NCBI GenBank assembly: GCA_016702505.1
Contig: JADJDU010000003.1
Location: 256,265 to 320,264, forward strand
Length of the DNA: 64,000 bases
Reading direction: 5' to 3'
From: Microthrixaceae bacterium
GTDB lineage: Bacteria > Actinomycetota > Acidimicrobiia > Acidimicrobiales > Iamiaceae
A model generated the notes under the pieces. The model made no database searches. It had not been told where the DNA came from and saw only the letters and a program-made list of their open reading frames with translations. The stretch's first letter is position 1; every line of letters starts with the position of its first letter. Shown here piece after piece: positions 15,913 to 54,696 of this stretch. The position numbers were made by a program, and so were the translations under genes.

Positions 15913-15970
15913 AGGAGCTACCCGTGACCGAACCGACTCGAGCGCAAGCGTCGCAGCGATCGACAGACGA

Positions 15971-22372: not shown

Positions 22373-22424
22373 TCGGGCTTTTAATCCGCCGGTTCAGGGT
22401 TCGAGTCCCTGGTGGCCCACCAAC
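22373..22424 (+). repeat. attR: 52-nt direct repeat of the tRNA-Lys 3' half (TCGGGCTTTTAATCCGCCGGTTCAGGGTTCGAGTCCCTGGTGGCCCACCAAC)
   Basis: Identical to tRNA positions ~13594..13643 except for one base (G for A at the anticodon-stem position). Confidence 0.8.
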
Positions 22425-22807
22425 CGAGGTCGAAGCCAGGCCGCAAACTCGGCCTCACCCCAGATCCCGGATGCCACCGCGACCACCGCTTGCTCCGCGT
22501 CATCGATCGACGGCGAATCGACCCAGGTCCACTCGTTCAGCATGACGAAGTACCGCATGGCGACCCAGGCCACCCGCTTGTTTCCGTCTGGCAGGGGATG
22601 GTTCTTGGCCAGCCGGACCATCAGCACCGAGGCCTTGTCCACGAAATCCGGGTAGAGGTCTGATTGCCCGAACCCCGCCGCTGGAGCGTGCAGCGCCGAA
22701 TCTGCGAGATCCAGGTTCGCGACTCTCAGGACGGTGGTCCCGTCGAGCCCGGTGACCTCCTCGGCGATCGCGACGTAGTCGGTGAGGTCGAGGTATCTGA
22801 CGGTCAC
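22394..22807 (-). CDS. doc: type II toxin, Doc/Fic family (death-on-curing); annotated C-terminus runs into the att repeat
   Basis: Fic/Doc motif HPLPDGNKRVAWVAMRYF (HPFxDGNKR). ~126-aa core. Confidence 0.7.
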   Translation of the reverse strand: MTVRYLDLTDYVAIAEEVTGLDGTTVLRVANLDLADSALHAPAAGFGQSDLYPDFVDKASVLMVRLAKNHPLPDGNKRVAWVAMRYFVMLNEWTWVDSPSIDDAEQAVVAVASGIWGEAEFAAWLRPRLVGHQGLEP

Positions 22808-23732: not shown

Positions 23733-24410
23733 ATGCCAGAACCGTCGTTGCAGGACCAGGCCCGAGCGCTCGGCGATCCAACACGGCACTCCATTTTCCG
23801 ATACGTCGCCGACTCGCCCGTTCCTGTGGGTGTAGCCGAGTTGACCGATCACCTGGGCCTCAACCACAACGCCATCCGCCAGCACTTGGCCCGGCTGGTC
23901 GAGGCGGGGCTGCTACTGGAGAGGACGGCGCCGCCTACCGGACGGGGACGCCCACGGTTGCTCTACCGGGAGAACCCGAATGCAGACAGCAGGTGGGGCG
24001 TCACCGGCCCTTACGAGCGGCTGGCCATCCTTCTCGCCGAGGTGGTGCGGAGCGGCGACAGCCCTGAGGAAGTAGGTCGACGAGCCGGGCTCCGAACTGG
24101 AAGCTCCAACAGGTCTAGCCACCCAGACCCCATGACCGCATTCAGCGAGGAGATGGCCCGCCAGGGCTTCTCTCCAACCGTCGAGCGCAATGGGTCCGAA
24201 GCCACGGTGACCCTCATGAACTGCCCGTTCGAGTCCGTGGTTCCGGCCGACGCCGACACGGTGTGTGGCCTACACCTCGGGCTAGCCCGTGGCGTGGCCG
24301 AAGCGGTGGGAGGGCTCGAGGTGACCTCACTGGAAGCCCACGAACCGAAACGAGCCGAGTGCCGCCTCAGGTGCCATGTCGGAGACGCAACTGCGACGTC
24401 GGGGACGTAG
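23733..24410 (+). CDS. ArsR/SmtB-family HTH transcriptional regulator with C-terminal extension
   Basis: LGDPTRHSIFRYVADSPVPVGVAELTDHLGLNHNAIRQHLARLVEAGLL is an ArsR-type wHTH. Confidence 0.7.
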   Translation: MPEPSLQDQARALGDPTRHSIFRYVADSPVPVGVAELTDHLGLNHNAIRQHLARLVEAGLLLERTAPPTGRGRPRLLYRENPNADSRWGVTGPYERLAILLAEVVRSGDSPEEVGRRAGLRTGSSNRSSHPDPMTAFSEEMARQGFSPTVERNGSEATVTLMNCPFESVVPADADTVCGLHLGLARGVAEAVGGLEVTSLEAHEPKRAECRLRCHVGDATATSGT

Positions 24411-24923: not shown

Positions 24924-26103
24924 TCACCCGGGACCGTCTACAACCGCTTCCAGGACGCCGCGGTAACGCTCGCCTGCCACCGCCATCGAGAACCGGGCCG
25001 CGCGTAGACGTGCAGCCCGGCCCATGCCGTCAAGGCGCTCACGATCGGCCAGCAAACCCGACACCGCGTCGGCCATGGCGGTCACCTCGTGTGATGCGAG
25101 GACCAGCCCGGTCTCACCGTTGGCCACCACCGCGGCCACCCCGCCTACCGGGAAGGAGACCACCGGGCATCCAGCCATCTGAGCCTCGATCGCCACCCCC
25201 GGCATTCCCTCCCCGTCGCTGGTGAGGATCAACAGATCGATCCCACCTAGGACCTGCTCCACCTCTGACACATGACCCAAGAGGTGAACCCGTTCCGCCA
25301 GACCGGCCTTGCCGACCTGGAGCTTGACGGCACCCGACCGTGGCCCTTCCCCGCCATAACCAGGTGAACCTCCACGCCCCGCTCGGCCAGTGCGGCCACC
25401 ACCTCCACGGCCACGTCGGGACGTTTCTGGTCTCGAAGTGACCCACGAAGCCGACGAGCACGGCATCGGACGGCAAACCCAGGCGCGACCGCAGACGACC
25501 GGCCTCGAGTTCTCGGTCGATGGTGTCGAAGCGAACCGAGCTACGAGAGTTGGGAATCAGTTCGACCGGTCCTTCGAAGGCCAACGCCCTCACCTCAGCC
25601 GTCAACTCAGGTGTCAGCGAGATGATCGCATCGGTACGCCCGAACACCAATCGCCACCACCAGCGCCAACACCGGCCCCGCTCTGCCACCGGCATCCCCA
25701 TTATGAGCTGGTTGACCACCGGACGCCTCCGACCGCCCAACACCGCCACCTGCAACGCTGAGCCGCCGTGGGCCAGGATCACGTCGGCATCGGTAACACC
25801 GACAGCACGACGCAACCGGGCCGCCGCCAGGGCAATCGCCAGCGGGGACTGACGAACCGCTCCGGTCAGTACCGGCAGGTCGGCAACGGTTCCTCCCTCG
25901 TGACCCGGACCGACTGCCCAAAAGGAGCTGGAGTGGCCGAACCGCTCCAGCTCTCGAGCCAACTCCAACGCCACCAACTCGGCACCACGATGGTGACTGC
26001 GGCCGACGAGGTGGAGGATCCGCACGGCCGGGAGTCTGTCACGCGCACCCGGACCATCGGAGCGGGTCATACTCGCGTGCCGTGTCCACTCCCGACTGCG
26101 CAC
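24924..26103 (-). pseudogene. GT4 (group 1) glycosyltransferase disrupted by two frameshifts (~25425 and ~25345)
   Basis: N-domain in frame A (25114..26103 ORF: ...LVGFVGHFETR). The next ~28 aa are readable only in a third frame (KRPDVAVEVVAALAERGVEVHLVMAG). The C-domain is in frame B (..25466 ORF: EGPRSGAVKLQVGKAGLAERVHLLGHV...EGMPGVAIEAQMAGCPVV). Confidence 0.6.
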
Positions 26104-27232
26104 CTGTCAATGGCCAGGAGCGGCCCGTGCGCGTCCTCGACCTGGTCAAGGGGCTCGACCGAGGCGGAGCCGAGACGCTCCTACTGACCGGCGCCCGCCA
26201 CCGGTACCCCGCCATCACCTCCGAGATCGCCTACCTGAGCTCCCGCCACGACCAACTCGTCGATGAGCTGACCGCCGAGGGGGTGAAGGTCACATGCCTG
26301 GCACCAGGTTCTATGGTCGACCCCCGCTGGCTTTGGCGTTTGCGTCGCGCCTAGCCGAAGTGGACGTGACCCATTCCCATTCACCGGTCCCGGCCACCGC
26401 GGCCAGGATCGTCTCGCGGACGATTCCCCGCCACCGTCGACCATCGCTGGTGACCACCGAGCACAACGTCTGGGACAGCCACCACCCCCTGACCAGACTG
26501 GCCGAGCGGATCACCTTCAAACTCGACGACGCCCACCTAGCAGTGTCCACCGCTGTGCTCGAGTCGCTCCCAGAGACCTACCGACCGGGTGTCGAGGTGG
26601 TGAGAGCGGGTGTCGACCTCGACGACGTCCGCTCTCACGCCGACCGGACCGGGATGCGCACAGAACTGGGAGTCTCCGATGACGAGGTCCTGATCGGCAC
26701 CGTGGCGAACCTGCGAGCGCAGAAGGGCTATCCCGACCTCCTGAGAGCGGCAAGACACGTGATCGATGCCGTGCCCAACGCCCGGTTCGTGGCCGCGGGA
26801 CGAGGGCCCCAACAGGGCGAGCTGGAGGCCCTGCACCTCGACCTGGGCCTAGGTGACCGATTCAGGTTCCTCGGTCACCGGGCCGATGCCGTGCGGGTGA
26901 TGTCCGGGCTGGACCTGTTCTGCCTCGCATCGCATCACGAAGGCCTGCCCGTCGCCCTAATGGAAGCACTGGCTCTGGGTCTGCCGGTGGTGTTGACATG
27001 AGTTGGAGGCATTCTTGAGCTGATCACCGACGGTGATCAAGGCCTCTTGGTCGACATCGGGTCGGTGGACGCCCTGGCCAACGCCCTCATCTCCGAGGCC
27101 CGCAACACCGAAGAACGCGCCACCCACGCCCGGGCGGCGCTGGCCACCGGCGATCAGCTCTCGATCAAGACCTCGGTGAAGCGGACCGAGGATCTGTACC
27201 GAACGATGGTCGAGGCCCGATGAGCGCCACCG
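26082..27232 (+). pseudogene. GT4 glycosyltransferase with one frameshift (~26340) and an in-frame TGA (26998-27000)
   Basis: ORF 26082..26354 is the N-term (RVLDLVKGLDRGGAETLLL...DPRWLWRLRRA). ORF 26294..27001 continues (LAEVDVTHSHSP...EGLPVALMEALALGLPVVLT*). After the TGA the same frame reads VGGILELITDGDQGLLVDIGSVDALANAL..., the canonical GT4 C-terminus. Confidence 0.6.
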
Positions 27233-29219
27233 AACCGGGTACCGGCGGTCACGAGGCCGGTCAGGCCCGCGAAGGCGACATTCCCAACCTTCAACGCCAA
27301 CTCGAAGCAGAACGGGCCGGAGCCACCTATTGGCGAGAACGGGCCCAGCACCACGAGAGCGCCCTGGCTGAGATCAAGTCCCGAACCGGGGTCCGAGCGG
27401 TCCTGGCTCTCGAACGTCGCACCGCGGGGATTCGCCGACGAGCCAAGGCCGTCGCCGCCGAGGTCCAAGCCGCCGGTTCGAGGTCAGCGCTGACGATTTC
27501 GGCCTTGCCCACGAGGGCGGTGATCCCCTCCCGACGCCGGGCGTTGGACGAAGCGGTGGCCCAAGCCAATCGCATGCCCCCCCTCGACCTTCGGCCAGTC
27601 CTGGTGGTGTGCATCGGGGTTGCATCGCCTCCGGCGTGGGCGGCATCAGTGGCCAGTCGTTCGACCGCCTCCGGCTCGATCACCGTCACCGTGTCCGAGA
27701 TCGAGGACCTGCCCGAGGTTGTGTCTCAGGCCGACGACGAGATCGAACTGATCTGCCTGGTCGATGCCCAGGTCGAGCCGCTCACGTCCACCTGGCTGGA
27801 CCATCTGTATGGGTCCCTCACCGAGAACGACGCGGCCGCGGCAACCGGCGTCATGGTTCACCCCCAACGGGCCCTCGCTCATTCGACGCCTCACGACTAC
27901 CTGATCCGCTCAGCCGGGTTCGAAGTGCTCACCGACACCTCGGGCGCCCCATCGGTGGTCCCGCTCCTGGCCGGCAGCATCGTCTCCCGTGCTGTCGACC
28001 GCACCGTCGATCTGGCCGGCGGGGCAATGTTGTTGGTGGATCGCCAGGCCGCGGTCGCCGCCGGTGGCTTCGACCGCTGGGGTTCCGCCGATGCCTGTGC
28101 CGTCGACCTGTGTTCGAGGCTCAACCGGAGGGCCCGGGCCGTGACCGTGGCGTCGGCTGCGCTCGGTATCGACCACCGCGACGTAACCGATCGACGCGGA
28201 TTGCGCCGCCCCTTCGACGAGACCGCTCCGGTTTGGTGCGATCTGCTCGAGCGATGTGGTCCGGCGCTGCGCCGAAGCGCAGCCACCGACCGCAATGCCC
28301 CGACATCGTTCACGTTCGCGGTGGCTGCACCCTCACCCAAGGTGGCCGACCGATGGGGTGATTGGCACCTGGCCGAGGCCATGTCCCGCGCCCTGCGATC
28401 GGCGGGATACGGAGCCGCCGTCCACACCAATCAGAGCGGAACGATCCCGGGGCCCTGTGTGCCGACGTTCAGGTGGTCGTCCGTGGCCTGGCTGGCTCGA
28501 CCCCCACCCCGGGACGCCACCAGGTGCTGTGGGTTATCAGCCACCCTGAGGACCTGCAGATCACCGAGTGCGACCGAGCCGACCTGGTACTGGTCGCTTC
28601 GAAGCTCTACGCCGATCACCTGGCGACCCTCACCTCGACTCCTGTCGGCGTGCTCCTCCAGGCCACCGACACGGCGCGCTTCCGCCCGGTACCCACCAAC
28701 CCGGATCGTCACCACGACGTGGTGGTGGTCGCGAAGTCCAGGGATGTCCTTCGGCCCATGGTGTCCCACGCCCTGGCGGCCGGCCTTCGGCCCGCCATCT
28801 ACGGCAGCGGTTGGGACCACCTAATACGACCGTCACTGATCGTCTGCGACCACATCGACAACGAATCCCTCCCCGAGCTCTACTCATCGGCCGGAGTTGT
28901 CCTCAACGACCACTGGGACACCATGCGCCACTGGGGCTTCCTGTCCAACCGCCTGTTCGACGTCCTCGCCTGCGGTACACCTGTCATATCCGACCCGATT
29001 CCCGGCCTCGGGGAACACCTCGGCGACCTGGTACCAACCTGTTCGACACCCGGTGAGCTGGCAGACCTGGTCCGCGGTGCGTTGTCGCTGAACCGAGACG
29101 CCTTTGCCGAACGGGCCCGGACAACCATCACCGCGGCCCACACCTTCACCCAGCGGGCCCGCGAGCTGACCAACGCATTGGCCGCGGCTGGAGTTCCCAT
29201 CCACCATCCAGTGTGCTGA
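27220..29219 (+). pseudogene. CgeB-family / group-1-like glycosyltransferase with N-terminal coiled coil; one frameshift at ~28440 within CCGGGGCCC (or a sequencing indel)
   Basis: ORF 27220.. is coherent to ...AVHTNQSG and then degenerates. ORF 28362..29219 continues from ALCADVQVVVRGLAG...HQVLWVISHPEDL...DLVLVASKLYADHLA (DUF3880/CgeB-like) through a GT1-type C-terminus. Confidence 0.5.
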
Positions 29220-29282
29220 TCGGCGATCGATAACGCGCGCTAGCATTTCCGGTCGCTGTTACCAAAGGAGTCGGTTCGCACA

Positions 29283-29738
29283 ATGGGTTACGTGATGGTG
29301 CCGGTGCCCGAGGAACACGTCGAGGAAGCGATGGAGGCCGTCCTTCGCATCACGCGCAGCGCTCGACTCACGCCTTGGGATCAGGAATCCATGGATGAGT
29401 TCTGGGCCGGGCTCGACGAGGGGGCCAAGGCCTTGGCTTCGTTGGTTGCCAGGGCAACGCTGGCCAACCGGCAGATCTCCCAGGCATCAGCAGCAGACCG
29501 CATGGAGGTCACCCAACGGGAGATCCTCGGGATCGTGCGAGACGTGAACCACCGAGCCCACGACATCGAAAGGCCCGCGGTCCTGATGGTCCAGGAGGCC
29601 ACCGAGACCCTGGCCAACGGGCGGACCCGGCCGGTTTCCATCGTTTCCACCAACGTGGCGCTGGCCCCCCTGATCCAACAGGCCGAACAGAACGACCTGG
29701 CCGGAGGCACCTCCACAGGGAGCGGGCTTCCGGGGTGA
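29283..29738 (+). CDS. hypothetical small protein, paralog of 49946..50374 (shared N-terminus MG.V.VPVPEEH.EE)
   Basis: 151 aa. Stop overlaps the wzm-wzt start (ATGA). No recognisable domain. Confidence 0.5.
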   Translation: MGYVMVPVPEEHVEEAMEAVLRITRSARLTPWDQESMDEFWAGLDEGAKALASLVARATLANRQISQASAADRMEVTQREILGIVRDVNHRAHDIERPAVLMVQEATETLANGRTRPVSIVSTNVALAPLIQQAEQNDLAGGTSTGSGLPG

Positions 29739-31378
29739 CAGACTTCGCCAGCGCGGCCGGCGAGCGCCCGTACAGCGACGTCGAGTACGTCTTCGAGCCG
29801 CACGACCACTCGCTTCCCGACCCTCGCGGCTACATCCGCGATGTCTGGGATCGTCGTGCCTTCATGGTGGCGAACGCCAAGGCGGAGATGAAGAGCCCCT
29901 ACGCCGGGACCGTTCTGGGCGAAGCCTGGCACATCCTCGATCCGCTCTTCCAAGCCCTGATCTACATGTTCCTGTTCACCGCTATCAGAGGAAACGGGAG
30001 CACCGACTACTTCCTCATGGTCGTGTCGGGGGTGTTCCTGTTCAACTTCACCATGGTCGGTCTGGGTCGTGGAGGGCGGGCCATCCAACGGTCGAAAGGG
30101 CTGGTGCTCAATTCGACCTTCCCGCTGGCAACCCTCCCGTTCTCGATGCTGTACGGCGGGTTCTTGGAGTTGTTGCCCACGTTGGGCGTGTACGCCGTGT
30201 TCCACCTCGTCTTCGGGGAGCGTTCGGGGTTGGCTTGTTCACCCTTCCTCCTGTTCATCCTTCAGGTCGCGATAATCGTGGGGCTGATGCTCCTCTTCGC
30301 CACCCTCACCGTCTACGTGAGGGACATGTCCAACCTGTTGGACTACATCCTCCGTATCCTGATGTTCGTCACCCCGGTCATCTATCCGGCGTCCCAGTTG
30401 GAGAAGCTCCCCACGGTTCTGGCCGCGATTTTGCACCTGAACCCGTTCTTCACCCTCTTCACCTCCTACCAGACCGCACTGAGCGGTGGGGTTCCGCGGC
30501 CCACGGACATCGCCCAGTCGATGGTGTGGGCCGTGGTGCTACCCATCTTGGGATTTCGGTTCTTCGTGTCCGGGAACGGGCTTCGCCATGAGGCTCCAGT
30601 GACTACAGGACCCGATCTGCCCGCGATCGAGGTGCAGAACCTGTCGACGTCCTACCACGTCCACCTCGACGCTGGTTCGACGTGGGGCGGCATCTACGAC
30701 CTGCTTCGACGCAGCCCGGACACCGACAGGATCGTCCCGGCCTTACGAGATGTCTCCTTCGAGGTGCCCCGAGGCAACGTTCTGGGTGTCATCGGACGAA
30801 ACGGTGCCGGAAAATCGACCCTGCTGCGCTGCATCGCTGGGGTACTACCCCCCGAACAGGGGCGAGTGGTGGTCCGGGGCCGAATCTCCTCACTTCTCAG
30901 CATCGGCGTGGGCATGAACGGCAGCCTCACCGGACGGGAGAACATCAGGCTCGGTGGTCTGGCCATCGGCCTGAGCCCCGACCAACTCGATGACATGACC
31001 GACGACATCGCCCACTTCGCCCAGTTGGGCGAGTACGTGGACTTCCCGGTCAACGCCTACTCGTCGGGGATGAAGGCCCGCCTCGGATTCGCGGTCGTCG
31101 CCCACTTGGACCCCGAAGTCCTCCTCATCGACGAGGCCCTGGCTGGCGGCGACTCCAAGTTCCAGGAGAAGGTGGCCAAGAAGATGGCCGAGATCTGCAG
31201 CAGCGGCCGGACCATCGTCTTGGTGAGCCACGGTCTCAATGCTCTGCGGTCGATGGCCACCACCGCCATTTGGCTGCACCAAGGACAGATCGTCGAGGAC
31301 GGGGACCCCGATGACGTCGTTTCCTCATACATGCGCTTTGCTCGAATCCAGGCCCTCGGCGGCGAACTCGACTTCTGA
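29735..31378 (+). CDS. fused ABC-2 permease / ATPase polysaccharide exporter (Wzm-Wzt / TagG-TagH-like)
   Basis: N-terminal six-TM ABC-2 domain. C-terminal NBD with Walker A GRNGAGKST, signature YSSGMKARLGFA and Walker B LLIDEAL. No C-terminal carbohydrate-binding extension. Confidence 0.85.
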   Translation: MTDFASAAGERPYSDVEYVFEPHDHSLPDPRGYIRDVWDRRAFMVANAKAEMKSPYAGTVLGEAWHILDPLFQALIYMFLFTAIRGNGSTDYFLMVVSGVFLFNFTMVGLGRGGRAIQRSKGLVLNSTFPLATLPFSMLYGGFLELLPTLGVYAVFHLVFGERSGLACSPFLLFILQVAIIVGLMLLFATLTVYVRDMSNLLDYILRILMFVTPVIYPASQLEKLPTVLAAILHLNPFFTLFTSYQTALSGGVPRPTDIAQSMVWAVVLPILGFRFFVSGNGLRHEAPVTTGPDLPAIEVQNLSTSYHVHLDAGSTWGGIYDLLRRSPDTDRIVPALRDVSFEVPRGNVLGVIGRNGAGKSTLLRCIAGVLPPEQGRVVVRGRISSLLSIGVGMNGSLTGRENIRLGGLAIGLSPDQLDDMTDDIAHFAQLGEYVDFPVNAYSSGMKARLGFAVVAHLDPEVLLIDEALAGGDSKFQEKVAKKMAEICSSGRTIVLVSHGLNALRSMATTAIWLHQGQIVEDGDPDDVVSSYMRFARIQALGGELDF

Positions 31379-31399: not shown

Positions 31400-32602
31400 G
31401 TGACGATCCCTTTCACTCCATTCGAAGACGACGACCTCCCACCCAGATCACGTCCTGTCAAAGAGCCCGAGCCGATCGACGACACCGTGCCGCCAACGTC
31501 AGCGCAGACGGGCCGAACCCCCGATGCCGGCGCCTCCAGCGACGATGTGACCGAAGACGACGACGAACCCCGCCTGGGGACGTCGCCCACCATCTCCAAG
31601 GCCGACGTCTCGGCCAAGGCGTCTAGGCGCAAGGCTCGGACCGGGGGTTCAGGTGGCTCAGGAGCGCGGCGCCGCAGCCGCCCCATCCTGGGGATCTCAC
31701 TCGTGGTTCTGGCGGCGGTGGTGTTCGCTGGCCTTCCGCTCCTCAAGTCGGCGTTCGCCCGCACACCCAAGGACCGCATCGGCATCAGCTACGGCGGTGG
31801 CCCGATCGAAGGCGTTCACTTCCAAAAGATCGTCGAACCCGGCCACGGCCTCTTCTTCAACGGCTTCTTCGATTCTCTCTACCTCTACCCCGCCGACCAG
31901 CTCAACTACATCCTGGCTCCCAAGCCGACCAAGGACGGCAAGGACACGACCCCCGACGCGGTCGTTGCACCCACCTCAGACCGTGTGAACGTGAGCTATC
32001 AGGTTGCCGTCTACTACCGGCTGAACACCGACAAGCTCCGAGACTTCCACGAGGAGTTCGGCCTCCGCTATCAGGCCTACACCAACAAGGGCTGGGATCG
32101 CCTGGTGGCCGACACCCTGCGCCAGCAGATCGAGGCTGCCCTCCAGGAGGAGACCAGGCGGCACACCGTCGCCGACCTGTTCGGGGACGCTGACCTTCTC
32201 GTCAAGGTCCAGAACGAGATCCAGGGAACCATCAGCACCCGCCTGGAAGCGGCGATGGGCGGACGGTTCTTCTGCGGCCCCACGTTCACAGCGGGCGGTG
32301 AGTGCGGCAACCCGACCTTCGTGATCAAGCGGATCGACATCCCCGAGTCGGTAGCCGCCGCCTTCGAGTCGAACCGGACTTCTGAGGTGATGATCACCAC
32401 CCGCCAGAACGAGGTCCGTCAACGCGAGGAGGAGGCTCGGGCCATCGCCGCCATCAACGAAGCCCTCCAGCAGAACTCCCGCGCCTACGTGATGCTCAAG
32501 GCCATCGAGTCCGGGAAGATCAACTTCTGGGTCATCCCCGAGGGAGCAGACGTCGACCTCACCGCTCCCGACACCTCCACGCCGCCCACGGCCGGCCAGT
32601 AA
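31400..32602 (+). CDS. SPFH/band-7 (stomatin/prohibitin-like) membrane protein with acidic disordered N-terminus
   Basis: One TM (ILGISLVVLAAVVFAGLPLL) followed by an SPFH-like core and a C-terminal coiled coil. Confidence 0.65.
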   Translation: MTIPFTPFEDDDLPPRSRPVKEPEPIDDTVPPTSAQTGRTPDAGASSDDVTEDDDEPRLGTSPTISKADVSAKASRRKARTGGSGGSGARRRSRPILGISLVVLAAVVFAGLPLLKSAFARTPKDRIGISYGGGPIEGVHFQKIVEPGHGLFFNGFFDSLYLYPADQLNYILAPKPTKDGKDTTPDAVVAPTSDRVNVSYQVAVYYRLNTDKLRDFHEEFGLRYQAYTNKGWDRLVADTLRQQIEAALQEETRRHTVADLFGDADLLVKVQNEIQGTISTRLEAAMGGRFFCGPTFTAGGECGNPTFVIKRIDIPESVAAAFESNRTSEVMITTRQNEVRQREEEARAIAAINEALQQNSRAYVMLKAIESGKINFWVIPEGADVDLTAPDTSTPPTAGQ

Positions 32603-32622: not shown

Positions 32623-35458
32623 ATGCAGCTGGTCATATTGGGAATGCACCGGTCCGGCACCTCGGGTGTCACCCGGCTGCTGAACATGGCCGGCGCCTAC
32701 TTTGGCCCCCCAGGGATCGCCACCGATGCCAACGAGGAGAACCCCAAGGGTTTCTGGGAACGCCGAGACGTGCGCGCCCTGTGCGACGGGCTCCTCCAGG
32801 GAGCCGGATTCGACTGGTTCCGACTCGGCGGCTTCTGAGCCGTCCGCCATCCCCGATGATCTACGTCAGGTCCAGGCAGAAGCCTTTGCTCATGTCCTAG
32901 ATGACCTGAACGCCCATCAGCCTTGGGTGGTGAAGGAACCGAGGCTCTGCCTGCTCATGCCGGTTCTGGAACACCTCCTCGACAGCGCGGTGTTCGTTCA
33001 CGTGTCGCGTGACCCCATCGAGGTGGCCCGATCCGTACACCACAGGAACAACCTCCCGATGGCGGGAGCCGTCGCCCTCTGGGAGACCTACACCCTCAGC
33101 GCCCTTTCGGCATCCGCAGGCCGCCCGCGGGCCCACGTCCGCCACGAGGAGGTCATGGCTGACCCGGTCGGCACCTTGAACCGCCTGATCGCTGACCTGG
33201 AAGCGTTGGGTGTGACCGGACTCGTCGCACCGGACCCCGAGGCGATAACCGACTTCATCGTTCCCAGCCTTCACCGCCAGCGCAGCGATCGCTCCAATCG
33301 GGAACACCACCTGAACGCCGACCAGCTCCACCTGGCCGACCTGTTGGACCGCAACCCACTGCCTGAGGTCCTGCCGCCACTGTCAGCAGGTGGGGCCGAC
33401 GCGCTTGCCGACCTCGTCCGCTTCGATGACGAGATCGTGGCCCGCAAGCAGGCCGAGCTCGACCAGCGGAGGGCACAGGCCGAGACCAGGCGGCTGACAG
33501 CCGAGACCCAAAGGCTTGAGCGCGCTATCGAGCGCATGGAAGCCACCCTGGACCATGAGCGAACCAGAAGGGCCGAACTCGGAGCGTCAGCCCTCGAATC
33601 GCTGGACCGAGCCGAGCGCGACATCAGGGCCATGACTGCTGGCCGGACCGCGACGGCCGCCGCCTACCTCACTGCCGCCCGCCGCACCGTGACACCTGGC
33701 GTCAGTCGGACCGACCCAACTCCGTTCTCCCGGGCCCTAGCCGGCGTCGAGAAGGGACGACGTCGCATTCGCGGGATGACCGCCGACTTACCCAGCACCT
33801 CGGTACGTACCACGACCCCTGGGATTGCTGAGGACCAAGCCGACCCCCCATCCAAACCTGAGACTCCGATCCAGCGGACCCGGCCTAGAACACCGAGCAG
33901 CGATCGACCGAAGGTGGCCGTACTGGCCTGGGACGTAGGGCACAACCCGCTGGGTCGAGCCAACGTATTGGCCGAGGTCTTGAGCGGTGATTACGAGGTA
34001 GAGCTCTGGGGCGCTCAGTTCGAGCGATATGGAAGCCGGATCTGGGCCCCGCTGCGAGACATCCCGACTCCTGTGAACGTCTTCCCCGGACGTCCCTTCC
34101 CCGACCACCTCGAGACGATGGAACAGGTCGCCGCCACCATCGATGCCGACGCCCTCTGGGTGTCCAAGCCTCGGCTGCCATCGTTCCTGCTCGGGGCATT
34201 GACCAAACAGCTCCGAAATCGACCACTGGTGCTGGACATCGATGACCACGAGCTGGCGTTCTTCGACGTCGACGAAGGGTTGGACATCAGATCGCTCTCA
34301 CCCCGACGCGGCGACAAGTCGCTGATTCTCCCCTTCGAGCGGGACTGGACCCGTGCCTGTGAGCCCTTGGTCGGTGGGGCAGATCTCCTCACCGTGTCCA
34401 ACGTCGCCCTCCAACAACGGTTCGGGGGCACGATCGTCCCCCACGCCCGGGACGAGGACATCTTCGACCCCGGAGTCGTAGACCGTGGAGCGGCTCGCCA
34501 TCGGCTGGGCATCGGGCCCAACGAGCGGGTTCTGCTCTTCGGGGGAACACCAAGGCTTCACAAGGGGATAATGGAGATCCTCACCGCGCTCGAGAAGCTC
34601 GGCGACCGTCGCTACCGGCTGATGGTGTTCGGAACCCGCGAGTTCGACGAGATGCGACCCCAGATCGGTGATTTGGCTCGATGGCTCCTACCCCTTCCTT
34701 ATCAGCCGTTCTCGGCGTTGCCCGAGGTGGTGGCAGCGGCCGACCTGGCCTGCATCCTCCAGAACCCCGAACATCCGGTCTCGGCGTACCAACTGCCGGC
34801 CAAGCTCACCGATGCGTTGGCCATGGGGGTGCCGGTCCTACTGCGGGAGACCCCACCGCTCCGTCCGATCATCGAGGCCGGGGCCGTCGCTGCTCTCCAG
34901 CCCGAAGACGACCTCGCAGATGCCATCGGTGCGGTATTCGAAGATGCCGAGACCACCTCTGAGCGGGTGGATGCCGGCCGCCGGCTGTTCCTGGACACGA
35001 TGAGCTATGGGGCGGTCCGCCACCAGATCCGCCCGGTGTTCGACTCGCTCATCAGCGATCCCCCCGCCCTATCTGCTGACCTCCGTGCCCTGATAGAGGT
35101 GCCAACGGAGTTGTTCGCCGGTCAGACCTCCTCGAGCCGCGAACCCCAGGCGTTCGCGCCAACCGTCGCGGCCTCGAGTCTCGGACCTGGCTGTACGGCG
35201 GCTCCCGGACCAGACGTCTCGGCCTGCCGGCCCGCAGCGACTACGTCGACCACGTCACCCGCGCACTGGCGAAGAAGGGCATCGGCGAGCGGCCATGGGT
35301 GCTTTGGGCATACCCGACAAATCCCGACCTCCCCCTTCTCATCGATCGTCTTCGTCCCGACGTGGTGTTGGCCGACGTGGTGGACGACAACCGGACCTGG
35401 TACTCACCGGGTACCGCCGAGCACGATCGGATCGACCAGAACTACCGCGACGTGCTGA
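32623..35458 (+). CDS. multidomain sulfotransferase / coiled-coil / GT4 glycosyltransferase fusion (frameshift at ~32835; region after ~35100 probably mis-framed)
   Basis: ORF 32623..32838 is the 5'-PSB motif MHRSGTSGVTRLLNMAG. The 32702.. frame continues with sulfotransferase KEPRLCLLMPVLEHL...HVSRDPIEVARSVHHRN. Coiled coil ~33400-33650, a Pro/Thr linker, then a GT4 domain at 33900-35050 (VAVLAWDVGHNP...GVPVLLRETP). Confidence 0.6.
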
Positions 35459-36129
35459 GCCGCTCCGACCTGGTCATCGCCAACTGCGAGCCGGCAGCCG
35501 CGGCCATGAAGGAGTTCGCCCCCGAGGTGCACGTGGTGCCCAATGGTCTCGAGCTCGATCCCCCGACGGTCACCGCCAAGATCGATGTGCGCGCTTTCGG
35601 CAGCCCGATCATCGGCTACGTGGGGAACCTCTCGTCCCGCATAGACATCGATCTGCTCGACGCCCTAGCCCGGGCACGACCTCGCTGGCAGTTCGTGTTC
35701 GTGGGCTCGACCCACCTGGACCCAGCCATCCTCCGCCTCGATGAGCACGCCAACGTTCATTTCCTCGGAGTTGTCCACCATCACCAGGCCAGAGCGATCA
35801 TGGCCGACTTCGATGTGGCTCTCATTCCCCACATCGACAACGAGATGACCCAGTCGATGAATCCACTCAAGGCTTTCGTGTACGCCTCCGTTGGTGTCCC
35901 GGTCGTGTCTACGCCCATCGCCAACCTGGGCGAACTAGGTGGGCTCATCTCGATCGCCAGCGGGGTCGACGGCTTCGTGACCGCCATCGAAGCCGAGCTG
36001 ACCAAGCCGCGCACCTCCGTCGACCGTGCCAGGCTCGAACCCCATTCCTGGGGGTCGCGACTGAAGTCGGTCCTGGATCTGATCGACGGCATCGGCCGTG
36101 GTGATTCGCCTTTGGGACCTAACAACTAG
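35299..36129 (+). CDS. glycosyltransferase group 1 C-terminal-domain protein; N-terminus may continue upstream to ~35080 in the same frame or belong to the preceding fusion protein
   Basis: GYVGNLSSRIDIDLLDALARARPRWQFVFVG...PLKAFVYASVGVPVVST is a GT-B C-domain. Upstream same-frame peptide ...RRLGLPARSDYVDHVTRALAKKGIGERPWVLW has no start codon. Confidence 0.5.
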   Translation: MLWAYPTNPDLPLLIDRLRPDVVLADVVDDNRTWYSPGTAEHDRIDQNYRDVLSRSDLVIANCEPAAAAMKEFAPEVHVVPNGLELDPPTVTAKIDVRAFGSPIIGYVGNLSSRIDIDLLDALARARPRWQFVFVGSTHLDPAILRLDEHANVHFLGVVHHHQARAIMADFDVALIPHIDNEMTQSMNPLKAFVYASVGVPVVSTPIANLGELGGLISIASGVDGFVTAIEAELTKPRTSVDRARLEPHSWGSRLKSVLDLIDGIGRGDSPLGPNN

Positions 36130-36187: not shown

Positions 36188-39100
36188 ATGTATCCGTTCT
36201 GGGATATCGCTGTCGCGCCAGCGCTCAAGGCCGCCAAATCACGAAGGATCGTGGAGATCGGTGCCCTCCGTGGGGAGACCACGGCGTTCATGCTCGCCGA
36301 CCTCGGAGCCGACACCGAGCTTCACGTGATCGACCCTGTTCCGGTCTTCGATCCGTCTGAGCACGAGGAGCAGTTCCCTGGTCGCTACATCTTCCACCGC
36401 GACCTGAGCCTCAACGTCCTGCCCGATCTCCCAGCGGTCGACGCCGCCCTGATCGACGGTGACCACAACTGGTACACGGTGTTCAACGAGCTGCGGCTGT
36501 TGAGCGAGACCGCCCGCGCCGCCGAGGCCCCACTGCCGCTCCTGGTCCTCCACGACGTCGGGTGGCCCTACGGCAGGCGGGACCTGTACTACGTCCCCGA
36601 GCAGATCCCCGAGGAGTTCCGCCAGCCCTACGCCGCTCAGGGAATGCTCAGGGGCCAATCCGAGCTGGCCGAGCGAGGCGGGCTGAACCCCACCAACTGC
36701 AACGCCACCCACGAAGGTGGGCCCCGCAACGGCGTCATGACCGCGGTCGACGACTTCATCGATGGCTACGACCGGCCGCTCCGACTCGTGTTCCTCCCCA
36801 CCTACTTCGGGCTGGCGATCGTGGTCGAGGAAACGGTGCTAGAGGCGCACCCGGCGCTCAGAGACCATCTCGACTGGCTCGAAGGCAGGGATGGTCAGGC
36901 CGCCTTGGTCGAGATGACCGAGGCCTCCCGGCTCGACACGCTCGTCATGCAGCACAGCGTCTACTTCACCGACAAGGAGCGGAGCGCGGCGGCCGCCGAC
37001 CGCTACCTCGGGCTGCTGGAGGGCGCCCTCCTCAACGAGCACTACATCGAACAGGAGATCCGCATCAGCTACCTGCTGGAGTGCAGCGAGCGCGGCATCA
37101 CCCCTCGACCCGAGGCACTTCGAGACCCAGCCCGCCAGCTCACCGAGGAGCTCCAGCGCCTTCGTCGGGCCAGACACGCCGGCGATACCGTCGACGATGC
37201 CGGGCCTGTGGGTGCCGCGTTCCCCTACACCACCGTCGGGCGCCAGCACCTCCGCCACCTTGTCCAGCTTCTCGACACCATCCATGCCGAAGCGGTGACC
37301 GGAGACCTTGTCGACATAGGCCCAGGACGCGGCGGTACCTCCATCCTTTTCCGGGGATACCTCGAGGCCTACGCCATCGACGTGCCCCGGGTATGGGTGG
37401 TCGACCGGTTCCGAGCTCGTCCAGCGCCATCCGATGATCCTCGGGCGACGTCTGTCGGTCGAAGTGGCGACAAGCCTGTAGAGGCCCAGAGTGCCTGGGA
37501 AGTCGTGGGAGGACCGGGACTGCCGGAACTGCTCGGGGACCTCAACAGCGTTCGCGAAGGTTTCCATTCCTTCGACCTACTCGATGACCAAGTTCGGTTC
37601 GTGGCCGGAGACGACCTCACCGCCCTGGAAGCCGCTCCCATCGAACGGATTGCGTTGCTCCACCTGGGTGAACGGTCGGCTTTGGACGTTGCCGCTGCCC
37701 TTGATCTGCTCTACGACCGTCTGACACTGGGTGCATTCATTGTGGTCGACGACTTTGACGACCCCGACCGCCGGGCTGCGGTGGAAGCGGTCCGGGCCCG
37801 ACATGGGTCCGACGAGGAGATCGTCACCATCGACCACGGCACCGTCATGTGGCGCAAGACCGAGAGGTCCCAGGCCGAGCTCGATGCGGCCGACGGAGCC
37901 TTGCCATCCTCAGACGATCGACCCACCGGCCCCGTGTTGGCCCCAGCACGAGGCTGGTTCCCGACCGACCTAACCGTGGTCGTGGTCTTCTACAACATGA
38001 AGCGCGAGGCAGCCCGGACGTTGCATTCGCTGTCCCGGGCCTACCAGCAAGGTATCGACGACATCACCTACGACGTCGTCGTCGTCGACAACGGCTCGGC
38101 CCCCGACCAGAAGCTCGATCCGGCCTGGGTCCGAAGCTTCGGCCCGGAGTTCCGGTTCATAGACATGGGCAGCGATGCCAAACCGTCGCCCATCCCGGCA
38201 CTTAACCGCGGGATCGCCGAAGGCCACGGCATCAACTACGCCCTCATGATCGACGGTGCCCACGTCCTCACCCCTGGCGTCCTTCGCCACGGCCTGGCCG
38301 GCCTGACCACCTATGCCCCCGCCGTCGTCGCCACCCAGCAGTGGTATGTGGGCCCCGGACAACAGGCCGATCTGGTGGCAGAGGGCTACAACCAGAGTTA
38401 CGAAGACGTCCTCTTCGACAAGATCAACTGGCCCTCAGATGGCTACCGCCTGTTCGACATCGGCCACTTCATCGGCGAGCGAGACTGGTTCGACGGCATG
38501 TGGGAGTCGAACTGCCTGTTTGCTCCCCGCAGCCTCCTCGAACAGGTCGGAGGGTTCGACGAACGGTTCTCTATGCCCGGTGGCGGATACGCCAACCTCG
38601 ACCTCTACGAGCGACTCGGCGCCAGCCCTGACGTCACGGTGGTGACCATGCTCGGTGAGGGGTCGTTCCACCAGGTCCACGGAGGTACGACCACCAATCT
38701 GTCCGGTGACGAGAAGCGCCACAACACCCTGGCCGAGTACTCCCAGCACTACCAGGATGTTCACGGTCGCCCGTTCCGCGGCAACGCCAAACCGGTGCAC
38801 TACGTCGGGTCCATGCCCCGTGAGGCAGCCCGCACAAAGGCCCGCCGTCGGGTTTCGCCCAACATGTTCAGCCTTCATGCGCCCGACCAGGTCGGCGGAG
38901 TACCCGAGAAGGCATCACCGATGCCGCAGGACCTGTGGTCGGAGTTCACCGACGCCTACTGGCACACCCTCAAGTGGCGCCAGACCCATTGGATGGGTCA
39001 GCGATTGTCCAAGCTTCCTGGAGACATGGTGATCATCCAGGAGATCCTCACCAAGGTCCGGCCCGACTGGATCGTCCACACCGGCACCGCCAACGGTGGA

Positions 39101-47156: not shown

Positions 47157-49829
47157 TCAGTTGGCCATCCCGTGCGCGGCCAGCGTCCGCTCAACGGGTG
47201 AGTGCAGCTCCCAGTGGAGGTACTCGTCAATGTCGGTATCGAAACCCAGTCCGATATCGCAGAGCCGGTGAGGATCCTCAACCGTGAAGGAGGCAGGACC
47301 ATAGGACTCCAGCGGAGGGACGTGGTCGGCCCAGTCTGTCCTGTGCCCGGAATCTTTGGCCTTCAACACGTCGCGGTACCAGGCTCCGACATCGTGACCC
47401 ACCTCGATCGTGTAGGGGAACTTCCGACCCTGGGCGGGGAGGACGGCATGTTGGGCCGCCAAGACAGCATCGAGCCCTGAACCAGGCGGCACGCCGAGTC
47501 GCTCGACCGCGAAGCGCCCCATCTCGTCGATGAAGAGGCGCCAGCTCACGGGAGGCACCATGGTCACCGGCACCACCCGGGTAGCGGTGGTGATCGTGGG
47601 GTAGGCCTCCGGCTCGTTCTGGGTCAGCTCTCGCAACGCCTCGATCAGGTCTGCTTCTCGCAGGCCAACGGTATGGCGCAGATACCTGGCCGTGAGGCGC
47701 AACACCGCGAAGTTCTCCATCAGGCGGAACACCGCTCGGAGCTGGAGCATCACGTCGTAATCCTCCCGGGTGAAGCTGGAGGACGAGACCACCAGCGCAC
47801 GTCCGAGTCCTGCTGACCCCCGAGACGGGATCGCGGGCGACGGCGATCGGTCGATTCGCTCGGTCCGGATCTGGTTCTCAGTCCTGTAGGACGGTTCGTT
47901 CATCGGGCTGTTGATCAGCATCTCGGTCTGGAAGACCTTTGCGTTGATCTCACGATCTATGCACTGCTGGAAGTCCTCTCGCACCGAGGCGGTCGTAGCT
48001 CCGGGTAGACCGATCATGAGATCAACCATCAGCGGAAGCTGGGCCTGGCGGAACTCACGGGCGAGATCGTCGTACTTCTCGACCTTGATGTTCTTCCGCC
48101 GAATGGTGGCCAGCGTGTCGTCGTCCATCGACTGCAACGAGAGAAGCCCTTCGGTGACAACGCCAGCTCCGGCCATCACCTGAACGATCTTCTGAAGGTA
48201 CTTGACCGTGTTCTTGGCGTAGTTGGTGACGAAGCTTCCGGGATAGCCCTTGGTCGTATACAGCTCCGCGACCTTCTCCGCGATCTGGACGTCCTGGTCG
48301 AAGATGCCGAAGTTGGCGTCGCAGAGGAAGATCTTCTCGACCTTGTTGTCTGCGCACCACTCGAGCTCCGCGAAGATCCGCTCCAGGTCGAACTTCCTGA
48401 TCCTCGAGGCAGTGCTCGATCCCCAGTCGCAGTAGGTGCAGCTGTAGGGACACCCACGGTTTGTCTCGATCATGGCCGTATTGATCACACCGCCACCGAA
48501 CGGCTCGTACAGGCCTGTCAGATACGGCGATGGCACCACGTTGATGTCGGTCAGCCGGTCGCGGTCCGCCGTCCGCACGACGCCATTGGGGCCTCGGTAA
48601 CTCAGGCCCGGCACCGAATCGAGGACCGAGAGGTCTCGCTCCTCGTCATCTCTAATGGGTGCCAACGCGGCCAACAGCTCGGCAAAGGTCACCTCGCCTT
48701 CGCCATGGACCACCACATCGATGAACGGGTTGGCAGCGAAGTAGGCCTCGACATCGCCCGGGTACTTGGGGGAGTCGGGTCCGCCATGGATCGTGATCGC
48801 CCTCGAGCTGCGATCCTTGATGATCTTGGAGCTCTCCAGGTTGACGCCGTGGGACCACACGTAGTTGCTGAACATGAAGACCGAGCCGTCGTCTATCAGC
48901 GACTCAAGCACGTCCGGGTACATGAAGGTGGCCGGGAGGAAGTCGTAGCTCTCCAAGAGCTGACCCTCGTTCCATGCCGATGCATATGACACCAACATCC
49001 CGAGTGACAACGGCATGATCAGCTGGTCATAGATCGGGATGACCGCAGTTCGGCGAACACCGGTCTCCGCCTGCTGGGCGTAGCGCTGCTCGATTCGATC
49101 TTCGAAATCAGATCGCAGGTGGGCCTGGGTTTCGATCGCCTTGGCGAACAGGTGACTAGCAATGAACTCCTGGCGAGAGGAGGTCTGCATCGACTCGGAT
49201 CGTCCGACGATGCGCGATGCCAGGAGGATCCCGGCCGTTTCCATGAAACGGTCCTCAGTCAGCGCCGCCCGGCCCGCCTGCTCGACGTGGGCCGCAAAGG
49301 CCGCCTCGACCGATTGCGAGGTGCTCAAGTTCACGGCAGCGAGCACCTGAGCTGCGCTCAACACCGCCCGGACACCTCCGTCGTGGTCGAGCGCGTAGTA
49401 GCTGCCATCAGCCACCGTCAAGAGGATCGGGCTCCCGATGTCGAGATTGTCAGACATCGCTACTGCTTCGGCTGCCCCCTGTCCCTCCGACGAACCGCGG
49501 GACGGCACCACCGCTCTGTTGGAGCCCTCGACCAACTTGCGCTCCCGCAAGTAGAAGAGCGTGACGTGAAGGTCGAATGCGGGCACGCTCCAGTCAGCCG
49601 ATATCTCCTCGATCAGGGGAGAAACGTCTCGAACCTCGGGCCCCGACAACTCAGCCATCAAGGCTAGATCGGCACCGGCGATCACAATCTCGGGAAGCAT
49701 GTCGATCTTGGGAATGCACACTCCTTCGCGACGGAGCATGACGGTGGCGAAACGGCTGAGCCGCGCGCCGTCTGCGGATGATGCTTCAGAGTGTTGGCTC
49801 TCACGCGTAGTTGAGATGTCGGTCATCAA
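47157..49829 (-). CDS. B12-binding radical SAM enzyme (class B rSAM) with ~250-aa N-terminal and ~250-aa C-terminal extensions
   Basis: Cobalamin-binding region (ITIHGGPDSPKYPGDV...VVVHGEGEVTF) followed by IETNRGCPYSCTYCDWG (CxxxCxxC). Confidence 0.85.
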   Translation of the reverse strand: MMTDISTTRESQHSEASSADGARLSRFATVMLRREGVCIPKIDMLPEIVIAGADLALMAELSGPEVRDVSPLIEEISADWSVPAFDLHVTLFYLRERKLVEGSNRAVVPSRGSSEGQGAAEAVAMSDNLDIGSPILLTVADGSYYALDHDGGVRAVLSAAQVLAAVNLSTSQSVEAAFAAHVEQAGRAALTEDRFMETAGILLASRIVGRSESMQTSSRQEFIASHLFAKAIETQAHLRSDFEDRIEQRYAQQAETGVRRTAVIPIYDQLIMPLSLGMLVSYASAWNEGQLLESYDFLPATFMYPDVLESLIDDGSVFMFSNYVWSHGVNLESSKIIKDRSSRAITIHGGPDSPKYPGDVEAYFAANPFIDVVVHGEGEVTFAELLAALAPIRDDEERDLSVLDSVPGLSYRGPNGVVRTADRDRLTDINVVPSPYLTGLYEPFGGGVINTAMIETNRGCPYSCTYCDWGSSTASRIRKFDLERIFAELEWCADNKVEKIFLCDANFGIFDQDVQIAEKVAELYTTKGYPGSFVTNYAKNTVKYLQKIVQVMAGAGVVTEGLLSLQSMDDDTLATIRRKNIKVEKYDDLAREFRQAQLPLMVDLMIGLPGATTASVREDFQQCIDREINAKVFQTEMLINSPMNEPSYRTENQIRTERIDRSPSPAIPSRGSAGLGRALVVSSSSFTREDYDVMLQLRAVFRLMENFAVLRLTARYLRHTVGLREADLIEALRELTQNEPEAYPTITTATRVVPVTMVPPVSWRLFIDEMGRFAVERLGVPPGSGLDAVLAAQHAVLPAQGRKFPYTIEVGHDVGAWYRDVLKAKDSGHRTDWADHVPPLESYGPASFTVEDPHRLCDIGLGFDTDIDEYLHWELHSPVERTLAAHGMAN

Positions 49830-50374: not shown

Positions 50375-50478
50375 CGGTCAGGATCCCTTGGGGGCGGCCG
50401 AAGTCATGCTCCCATCCTATTAGGCACCTGAGCGATAGGTCCGGTAGTCGTCGCTACCAGGTTGATCAGACCGGGGGA

Positions 50479-51402
50479 TCAGGGGCGGCGTTCGATCGCC
50501 AGTCGGGCGCAGTGGTCGAGCATCTCCAACGCCGGGTCCGGCATTCGTCCGAGGTGAATCGGGTCAGCCGTCAGCTCCCGGAATGGGGCGCCACGAAGCG
50601 TCTGGTACTGGGCGTCCATGTCGGCCCAGGTGAACCTTCGGGACGTAGCCGCACCGCCATGGATCTGGTGGAACGTGCCCTCGGCCAGGAGCTGGACCAG
50701 TGTCGTGTCATCCCGCTGGCAGGCCCGCAGGTAGAGGTCGTGGTTCACCAGCCCGCCTCCGGGTAGGTCGAAGGCTTCGTCATAACCCCCGAGGTCAGTC
50801 CACAGATCGCGACCCATGAAGAGCGAACTGCTTTCGCTCTTGGCGCCGAACCAACCCCGATGCGACGAGCCCGCCAGGGTGGAGCAACCGAACAGCCGAT
50901 AACCGTCCTTCGTCCACTCCACCTGCTCCAACAACGCGTCCTCGACGGCCTGGTCATAGCCAGCTTCGGCCGCCTTCATGTGGGTGGTGGGTCCAAGGTG
51001 GTATGCGGGAGCGGTCACCACCGCACGGTCTGCCACTCGGTCACCGCGAATGGCCATTGCCAGCAACCCAGGAGATGCCAATCGAGCACCATCCATCACC
51101 ACCCCGACCAGCGACCCGCGGGCCGCCTCGATACCGATGTTGGCGGCACGTGCCGGCGATGCCGGGGCCGGGTCGAGCCTGATCAACCTGGCATCGAGCA
51201 CCGAGTCTGCGACGATCCGATCCAGCGGCTCGGGGGAGCCGTTGTCGACGACGACCACCTCGTAGTCGTCAGGATCGACCTCTCGTTGGTATCGGGGAGA
51301 CAGGCTGTAGAGGGTCCGTGGCAGTTCGCGACCCATTCCGTAGGCCACCACCACGACGGTCAGGGCCGGGCGTCGTTCCTCGCCCCCGGCGCGAAGCGTC
51401 AC
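50479..51402 (-). CDS. GT2 glycosyltransferase, stand-alone paralog of the GT2 domain of the giant enzymes
   Basis: TVVVVAYGMGRELPRTLYSLS...YEVVVVDNGS and W.KDGYRLFG...GGYDEAFDLPGGGLVNHDLY parallel aa ~600-850 of 36188..39583. Confidence 0.8.
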   Translation of the reverse strand: MTLRAGGEERRPALTVVVVAYGMGRELPRTLYSLSPRYQREVDPDDYEVVVVDNGSPEPLDRIVADSVLDARLIRLDPAPASPARAANIGIEAARGSLVGVVMDGARLASPGLLAMAIRGDRVADRAVVTAPAYHLGPTTHMKAAEAGYDQAVEDALLEQVEWTKDGYRLFGCSTLAGSSHRGWFGAKSESSSLFMGRDLWTDLGGYDEAFDLPGGGLVNHDLYLRACQRDDTTLVQLLAEGTFHQIHGGAATSRRFTWADMDAQYQTLRGAPFRELTADPIHLGRMPDPALEMLDHCARLAIERRP

Positions 51403-54400: not shown

Positions 54401-54696
54401 GTACACCGTGTACCAGTTGTGATCGCCGTCGATCAGCGCTGCATCCATGGCCGGCAGTTCACCGAGGACATCGACGCTCAGGGCTCGGTGGAACACGTAC
54501 TGACCGGCGAACTCCCGTTCATGCTCGGCGGGATCAAACGCCGGCTTCGGGTCGATCACGTGTAGCTCGGTCTCAGGCCCGAGCGTCTCGATGATCTGGC
54601 GGGTGTTCTCTCCCCGGAGGGCACCGATCTCGACCAGGCGTTTGACTCCGCCCGCCTCTAGCACGGGAGCGATGACGTCGTTCCAGAAGGGGAACA
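51416..54696 (-). CDS. giant four-domain MTase / MTase / GT2 / MTase enzyme, paralog of 36188..39583
   Basis: Track ORF 51416..55099 carries a spurious 134-aa N-extension. The real start MFPFWNDVIAPVLEAGGVKRLVEIGALRGENT... is about 70% identical to the paralog over the first 200 aa, with the same domain order through the CmcI-like C-terminus (VAYQEIISTVRPDWIIETGSKDGG). Confidence 0.85.

Follow-up and report, generated by a model that had tools for sequence, protein, structure and literature searches.

Paralogous small winged-helix proteins in a Microthrixaceae glycan cluster: candidate operon-specific regulators from an apparently undescribed family of the Acidimicrobiia

What do two small, related genes do at separate points of a large glycan biosynthesis cluster? 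The question is raised by a 64,000-nucleotide (nt) stretch of DNA from a Microthrixaceae bacterium (contig JADJDU010000003.1), the whole of which is referred to here as the window. A preliminary description of this stretch had singled out two of its open reading frames (ORFs), here called paralog A and paralog B, for their similar N-termini, and had proposed that they encode adaptor or specificity factors, carrier-like proteins, or modified precursor-like substrates. We find that A and B are small acidic cytoplasmic proteins with a predicted winged-helix fold. At a probability of about 45%, we take them to be operon-specific winged-helix transcription regulators of their units of the glycan cluster. 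The two genes, and a translation signal of the first, are located as follows.

29283..29738, + strand: paralog A, ATG start, 151 amino acids
49946..50374, − strand: paralog B, GTG start, 142 amino acids; a divergent family member with the fold of A
29265..29271, + strand: Shine-Dalgarno-like AAAGGAG, 11 nt before the ATG of A; AAGGAG/GGAGG is kept there in relatives

Both ORFs occur at the coordinates given in the preliminary description, and the N-termini quoted there are exact. They are members of a genuine duplicated family, as had been proposed, and are paralogous over at least 106 residues (29% identity across 106 amino acids, E=2e-10 by BLASTP). A hidden Markov model (HMM) of the family detects A at 1e-48 and B at 9.5e-23. 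The two proteins had been thought to diverge after the N-terminus; instead, the alignment extends over 106 amino acids, and the fold predicted by AlphaFold is common to the whole of both. No third copy was found in the window by searching its six-frame translation with the family HMM, and a loose search of the window for VPVPEE-type motifs found ORFs A and B only. The G+C content at third codon positions (GC3) is 0.81 in A and 0.79 in B, like that of neighboring genes, while ORFs overlapping in antisense have values of 0.66–0.69. The preliminary description had also named chance ORFs as an alternative, and this is ruled out by the coding-type GC3, the similarity beyond the N-terminus, and the existence of homologs elsewhere. 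A and B are both coding. As read from the sequence, B has a ribosome-binding-site-like AAGGGA ~10 nt ahead of its GTG.

The AlphaFold models of A and B (mean predicted local distance difference test score, or pLDDT, of 86.7 and 82.2, respectively) have an identical order of secondary structure elements. A coil (residues 1–9) is followed by helices at 10–27, 31/34–42, and 46–60, a two-residue strand, helices at 67–74 and 78–94, a β-hairpin at ~101–123 with a glycine at its turn, and a last helix at ~125–140. The pLDDT exceeds 90 for residues 31–140 of A and is only 62–73 for residues 1–30 in both models. As modeled, the fold of A and B is a MarR/ArsR-like winged helix with flanking helices. The top Foldseek matches are the MarR regulators ST1710, Rv0880, MepR, and MftR, which align end to end over 140–145 columns (E ~1e-3) with low template modeling (TM) scores of 0.37–0.44; for SmtB, the TM score is 0.62–0.64. 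The nearest structural relatives are overwhelmingly DNA binders. In A, an N-terminal MGYVMVPVPEEH peptide precedes the MarR/ArsR-like winged helix, in which a recognition-type helix (78–94) leads to a β-hairpin wing (101–123) with an NGR turn and then to a C-terminal helix (128–140). A-type proteins retain R79 and R86 on the recognition-type helix and an arginine at the tip of the wing (LPNGRTRE).

The hallmark of the family is a nearly invariant (M)xYVMVPVPEE peptide at the extreme N-terminus. Across 108 diverse members, P7 is invariant, V6, V8, P9, and A128 are more than 90% conserved, the positions of E10 and E11 are 79–90% acidic, and Y3 is only 68% conserved. No column of conserved Ser, Thr, Cys, Lys, or His exists in these 108 members, which argues against a catalytic or carrier role. 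In an alignment of 51 relatives of A together with A and B, 25 of the 53 sequences have a disordered C-terminal tail bearing a short motif, typically (P)HPLLSxxG. The window copies are without this motif, A terminating in ...GSGLPG.

The family is sizeable and, as far as its sequences indicate, restricted to the Acidimicrobiia. A word search of a 5.8-billion-protein set recovered 75 homologs of A, most of them 149–155 amino acids in length and all annotated as “hypothetical”; the named sources are metagenome-assembled genomes (MAGs) of Acidimicrobiales or Microthrixaceae. The same type of search found a single, 99%-identical twin for B, which the family profile recovers at 5e-26. Having just this one near-identical twin, B is taken to be a divergent lineage-specific member; it forms a singleton ortholog group, and its best relative is 28% identical. 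An exhaustive profile search yielded 407 clusters (at 50% identity) at a threshold of E≤1e-3, 292 of them reaching E≤1e-10, and a profile word search yielded 698 family proteins. Scanning one genome per GTDB species for the peptide VMVPVPEE gave 45 loci, all in Acidimicrobiia, Acidimicrobiales, Microthrixaceae, Aquihabitans, or unclassified actinobacterial MAGs, a distribution that does not prove the family absent outside the Acidimicrobiia, as the scan demands the exact peptide. Several contigs hold two family copies, either 37–56 kb or a few kb apart. Pfam and NCBIfam have no match for A, B, 53 relatives, or 10 distant members, and a family profile search of all PDB sequences came back empty. 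A real family therefore lies behind the resemblance seen in the preliminary description, one without a sequence match in Pfam, NCBIfam, or PDB and apparently undescribed. An NCBIfam YfiR-like match (E=0.031, 14 bits against a cutoff of 125) and scattered Pfam matches to Phage_CP76 and Nitroreductase were dismissed as noise.

Each gene is preceded by an element resembling a bacterial −10 hexamer.

29241..29246, + strand: −10-like hexamer TAGCAT, 37 nt upstream of the start of A; putative promoter
50414..50419, − strand: −10-like TAGGAT, 40 nt upstream of the GTG of B, in the 104-nt gap after a GT2 glycosyltransferase gene; putative

The TAGCAT of A lies in AACGCGCGCTAGC (29232–29244), which is conserved in the closest relatives, and is overlapped by TAACGCGCGCTA (29231–29242), a 10/12 palindrome kept only in close relatives. 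The spacing of TAGGAT in front of B resembles that of other family members. TANNNT occurs 25–75 nt upstream in 35 of 44 non-identical copies, as compared with 8.5 ± 2.7 (maximum 17) in composition-preserving shuffles, a count that overstates independence because the upstream sequences are related. The element comes in versions particular to subfamilies: AACGCGCGCTAGCAT in A and its closest relatives, GCGCTAnnnT in more distant A-types, TTGGTG-17-TAGCAT in the subfamily designated cluster 9, and cgTCTAnnCT in the one designated cluster 10. Judged by these consensus matches, each family copy appears to have its own putative promoter. Scans for E. coli-type promoters and terminators gave nothing near A or B. 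Scans for inverted repeats around A, around B, and in the divergent region 26050–26320 gave just GC-rich mini-palindromes besides the 10/12 palindrome of A, and Rfam had no match in 28800–51000.

The genes next to A and B belong to a glycan pathway.

29735..31378, + strand: Wzm-Wzt ABC exporter (ABC2_membrane + ABC_tran) in a single 547-amino acid ORF, identified by Pfam, NCBIfam, and synteny
31400..32602, + strand: Band_7/SPFH membrane protein, identified by Pfam and by synteny beside the A-Wzm-Wzt block
47157..49829, − strand: B12-binding radical S-adenosylmethionine (rSAM) protein of 890 amino acids, a KedN5-like C-methyltransferase (Pfam Radical_SAM, 6e-16)
50479..51402, − strand: GT2 glycosyltransferase directly upstream of B (Pfam Glycos_transf_2)

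On the plus strand, A is followed by Wzm-Wzt, Band_7, a sulfotransferase-GT1 protein (32702–35458), and a giant Methyltransf_24-TylF-GT2-CmcI protein (36188–39583). The order on the minus strand is a second giant with the same domain architecture (51416–55099), GT2, B, the B12-rSAM protein, and a GDSL-like protein, with TylF methyltransferases, two hexapeptide acyltransferases, and a PhyH dioxygenase further on. The product of this cluster is most likely an O-methylated, sulfated glycan exported by the ABC transporter. The Wzm-Wzt start overlaps the stop codon of A by 4 bp (GTGA, 29735–29738). A gap of 116 nt separates B from the rSAM gene on the same strand, with no terminator predicted in an E. 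coli-type scan. The preliminary description had placed each copy upstream of a key enzyme with which it was apparently co-transcribed; the placement is correct for both, and co-transcription of B with the rSAM gene is only plausible.

Placement before particular enzyme or exporter genes recurs in other genomes, where subfamilies pair consistently with particular neighbors. (Loci in other genomes or contigs carry L or P numbers; their neighboring genes were called with a per-locus model and are approximate.) Without exception, family members are found within glycan clusters in which genes for O-methyltransferases, sulfotransferases, and glycosyltransferases abound. The A-type order, consisting of the family gene, a 4-bp overlap, wzm, wzt, Band_7, and a sulfotransferase gene, is kept from 78% down to ~30% identity and is found in ~22 of ~30 A-type genome loci, L001–L005 among them. 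At L031, L033, and L034, Band_7 is relocated upstream, with the family gene still beside wzm. In cluster 9 (L008, L040, L043, and L051), a TylF/Methyltransf_24 gene lies upstream in all four loci, and GT1 follows 13–14 bp downstream in L008 and L040, the downstream side of L043 and L051 not being resolved. In cluster 10 (L047, L050, and L053), the family gene is 1 bp ahead of a giant gene combining methyltransferase, GT2, and methyltransferase domains (MT-GT2-MT). Pairing is not obligatory: downstream of the A-like gene at L020, L022, L023, P0329, and P0256 there is a convergent gene or one for a sulfotransferase, which leaves the A-like gene in effect monocistronic. The family gene can thus stand alone in a cluster and needs no co-translated partner.

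The MarR/ArsR-like fold, the position of the gene at the head of a unit or on its own, and the precedent of ABC-transporter operons together make a regulator the single most likely reading. A small winged helix-turn-helix (HTH) gene heading an ABC-transporter operon is a common arrangement for regulators, as in YtrA-type operons. Also in favor of regulators are the −10-like elements suggestive of own promoters, the copies that stand alone, the arginines retained by A-type proteins on the recognition-type helix and at the wing tip, and the palindrome overlapping the −10-like hexamer of A. We infer a scheme in which every paralog would have a promoter of its own and mostly come first in its unit; A would head a unit continuing with Wzm/Wzt and Band_7, and B would head one continuing with the rSAM gene. 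The variable winged-helix part (helix 78–94 and the wing) would read a DNA site specific to the unit and so regulate it. All paralogs would rely on the invariant N-terminal strand and helix for one and the same task, most simply dimerization or, alternatively, binding to a partner that they have in common, RNA polymerase for example. The first helix mediates dimerization in MarR and ArsR dimers, and dimerization through the N-terminal strand and helix would explain the low confidence of the monomer models at residues 1–30.

Substantial evidence weighs against regulators of this kind. No HTH-family sequence model matches A, B, or their relatives. The proteins are acidic, with a family median isoelectric point of 4.75 and net charge of −9 (about the 10th percentile of neighboring genes); the N-terminal 45 residues carry about −5 of net charge. 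By charge counts, the winged-helix part has −1 on average and −6 in B, with medians of −2 for the HTH and 0 for the wing, and the conserved acidic residues E80 and E87 sit on the recognition-type helix. The strongest conservation is in the hydrophobic N-terminal peptide, not on the DNA-reading surface. With regard to DNA sites, AACGCGCGCTAGC and the palindrome TAACGCGCGCTA are each found once in the window, no more than expected by chance, there are no inverted repeats near B, and a recurring operator motif was not found. Several paralogs occur per cluster, each 0–15 bp from a different enzyme gene, an arrangement that also fits protein partners. Lastly, a canonical HTH_20/MarR_2 regulator (23733–24410) already flanks the cluster.

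Among known systems, the family most resembles MarR/ArsR-type small regulators (MarR/ArsR/SmtB proteins such as ST1710, Rv0880, MepR, BldR, SmtB, and CzrA), with which it has the winged-helix fold in common, yet it fails membership at the level of sequence. No sequence relationship to these is detectable (hhalign probability of 3.6% with the local MarR_2 protein and 0.1% with E. coli MarR). The family differs from them further in being strongly acidic, with a neutral-to-negative HTH and wing, and in having an invariant hydrophobic N-terminal peptide, a single C-terminal helix, and several paralogs per biosynthetic cluster. UpxY and UpxZ of Bacteroides capsule loci, like RfaH and LoaP, are locus-specific transcription factors heading polysaccharide operons. 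UpxY/UpxZ are likewise paralogous small proteins encoded one per polysaccharide unit as the leading gene, a likeness in arrangement only. UpxY/UpxZ and RfaH/LoaP are NusG-like (NGN-KOW), whereas the present family is a winged helix, and no antitermination signal or conserved RNA in the 5'-untranslated region was found (Rfam negative). The carbohydrate-binding module of Wzt is a β-sandwich, which the family fold, helical with a hairpin, is not; the family gene occurs alike with short Wzt (~259 amino acids) and long Wzt (326–515 amino acids).

Much the same evidence can be read in terms of protein rather than DNA partners. Non-DNA-binding adaptors or assembly factors, the main rival and the proposal of the preliminary description that survives best, are possible, if less to be expected than the regulator absent from that description, which the unanticipated MarR/ArsR-like fold puts in the lead. 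The variable body of such an adaptor would bind whatever the neighboring gene encodes (Wzm/Wzt, GT1, giant methyltransferase-GT2, sulfotransferase, or B12-rSAM), and its invariant N-terminal peptide would dock as an added β-strand on one shared hub, organizing glycan assembly at the exporter. An invariant peptide on a variable body agrees with this, as do the acidic charge and the acidic residues on the “recognition” helix, and the confinement of low AlphaFold2 confidence (pLDDT 62–73) to residues 1–30 is expected of a segment that folds on a partner. Also in agreement are the pairings kept across genomes, in which cluster 9 goes with GT1, cluster 10 with the giant MT-GT2-MT at a 1-bp gap, and the A-type with Wzm at a 4-bp overlap, together with the second short motif, (P)HPL, in the disordered C-terminal tail of about half of the A-types. 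However, no fold unites the presumed partners, no hub candidate was identified, and some monocistronic A-type genes lack any neighbor in the same orientation. The closest structural relatives bind DNA in the overwhelming majority, and what look like fusions to enzymes either result from frameshifts or lie on error-prone contigs. A modular docking code, in which paralogous non-DNA-binding adaptors use YVMVPVPEE on a shared hub while their bodies hold the enzymes and Wzm/Wzt, is likewise possible, if less to be expected than regulators.

The position of B directly upstream of the rSAM gene raises the thought of a ligand-sensing or chaperone-like enzyme partner (compare MbtH-like and RRE-like proteins) that presents substrate to the B12-rSAM enzyme or stabilizes it. 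RRE domains are winged-helix-like, and RRE/PqqD domains are, like B, small proteins beside rSAM enzymes. A family gene also lies between two B12-rSAM genes at L055 and near an rSAM homolog at L052. We nevertheless judge this improbable: both rSAM genes of L055 are encoded on the other strand, an rSAM neighbor is lacking for most family members, and a conserved pairing cannot be demonstrated for B, whose ortholog group is a singleton. The order of strands and helices also differs from the three-stranded sheet and ensuing three helices of RRE/PqqD domains, and no PqqD-type structural neighbors were matched. The least probable of these proposals, and one that we give very little credence, is that the proteins are carriers or ribosomally made precursors modified by cluster enzymes, for example on the VPVPEE peptide. 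Only the invariance of the N-terminal peptide and the fact that the clusters contain genes for rSAM proteins and PhyH-type oxygenases speak for it. A carrier would be a small helical bundle with a conserved Ser, Cys, or Lys for attachment, whereas the family has a winged helix and no conserved nucleophile (Ser, Thr, Cys, Lys, or Tyr), nor a conserved His. A precursor of a ribosomally synthesized and post-translationally modified peptide (RiPP) would be a short peptide made up of leader and variable core, encoded beside its modifying enzymes; family members are instead 135–155 amino acids long, confidently folded, and conserved over their full length, with no peptidase, cyclase, or RiPP-type genes nearby, and the genes of the cluster point to a polysaccharide pathway. 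The rSAM protein itself is KedN5-like, its best NCBIfam match being to this sugar/polyketide-type C-methyltransferase (249 bits, cutoff 700), compared with 45 bits for RiPP methyltransferases.

The family is new in sequence and built on a known, ordinary fold, and neither that fold nor the genomic logic holds a surprise; the value of the result lies in its usefulness. Soil, water, and wastewater are rich in Acidimicrobiia, most of which are uncultured, and to our knowledge their cell-envelope biology is almost unknown. No literature was found on a winged helix together with Wzm/Wzt, or on glycan clusters of Acidimicrobiia. The family marks large methylated and sulfated glycan clusters in this class. 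As regulators, its members would open a way into the control that switches on the units of these clusters; as adaptors, they would make the invariant N-terminal peptide a novel means of docking in glycan assembly. Defining the family improves the annotation of several hundred sequence clusters now labeled just “hypothetical”, and it merits a Pfam entry.

Several features of the surrounding cluster may be added. The giants at 36188–39583 (+ strand, 1131 amino acids) and 51416–55099 (− strand, 1227 amino acids) are paralogous, have homologs in nearly all related clusters, and are likely combined glycosyltransferase/O-methyltransferases. The N-terminal ~300 amino acids of the rSAM protein (47157–49829) are without a family match. 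The Band_7/SPFH protein has an acidic, proline-rich N-terminal tail, and its gene adjoins the Wzm-Wzt genes in the window and at L001–L005, L016, L021, L031–L035, L038, and L042; an SPFH protein is an unusual companion for a glycan ABC exporter. In one branch, a PhyH-like dioxygenase gene (homolog of 41308–42303 in the window) replaces the glycosyltransferase upstream of the A-type gene, ~130–140 nt away in L004 (8762–9859), L005 (3817–4914), and L016 (6770–7873) and ~2.5 kb away in L015 (4367–5455).

Wzm and Wzt are encoded by two genes in relatives (~291 and 259 amino acids, with a 4-bp overlap), and a 2-nt difference from L001 near 30570–30600, eight codons before the Wzm stop, joins their frames in the window; the single ORF is a genuine fusion or else the result of an indel in the assembly. 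Glycosyltransferase genes at 27220–29219, 26294–27001, 24924–26103, and 32702–36129 are split across overlapping frames in the window and are single ORFs in L001 (659, 382, 376, and 1262 amino acids), which suggests multiple frameshifts, from pseudogenes or sequencing errors. The tail of the 918-amino acid ORF resembles an out-of-frame translation. At L036, L037, L044, L045, L046, and L056 (mostly “MFD” assemblies), family genes and their neighbors are frame-broken, giving rise to false fusions. The family-sulfotransferase “fusions” of L036 and P0152 were rejected as frameshifted assemblies with the family domain split across frames, and the family-FkbM methyltransferase “fusion” of P0183 was not counted, its contig having other fragmented genes.

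The canonical HTH_20/MarR_2/ArsR-type regulator (225 amino acids, + strand) borders the cluster, and its gene is followed by a bacterial-globin gene. The regulator is syntenic in relatives (3238–3897 in L001) and is a conventional candidate for regulating the same cluster. Immediately to the left of the glycan cluster are genes for a TrwC-type relaxase/helicase (15683–19315, 1210 amino acids), an endonuclease/exonuclease/phosphatase-family protein (19682–20611), and a Fic/DOC protein (22394–22807). L001–L003 carry PhoX, CLC, and MarR genes in place of this TrwC-type/Fic/DOC stretch, which looks like a mobile element inserted beside the cluster.
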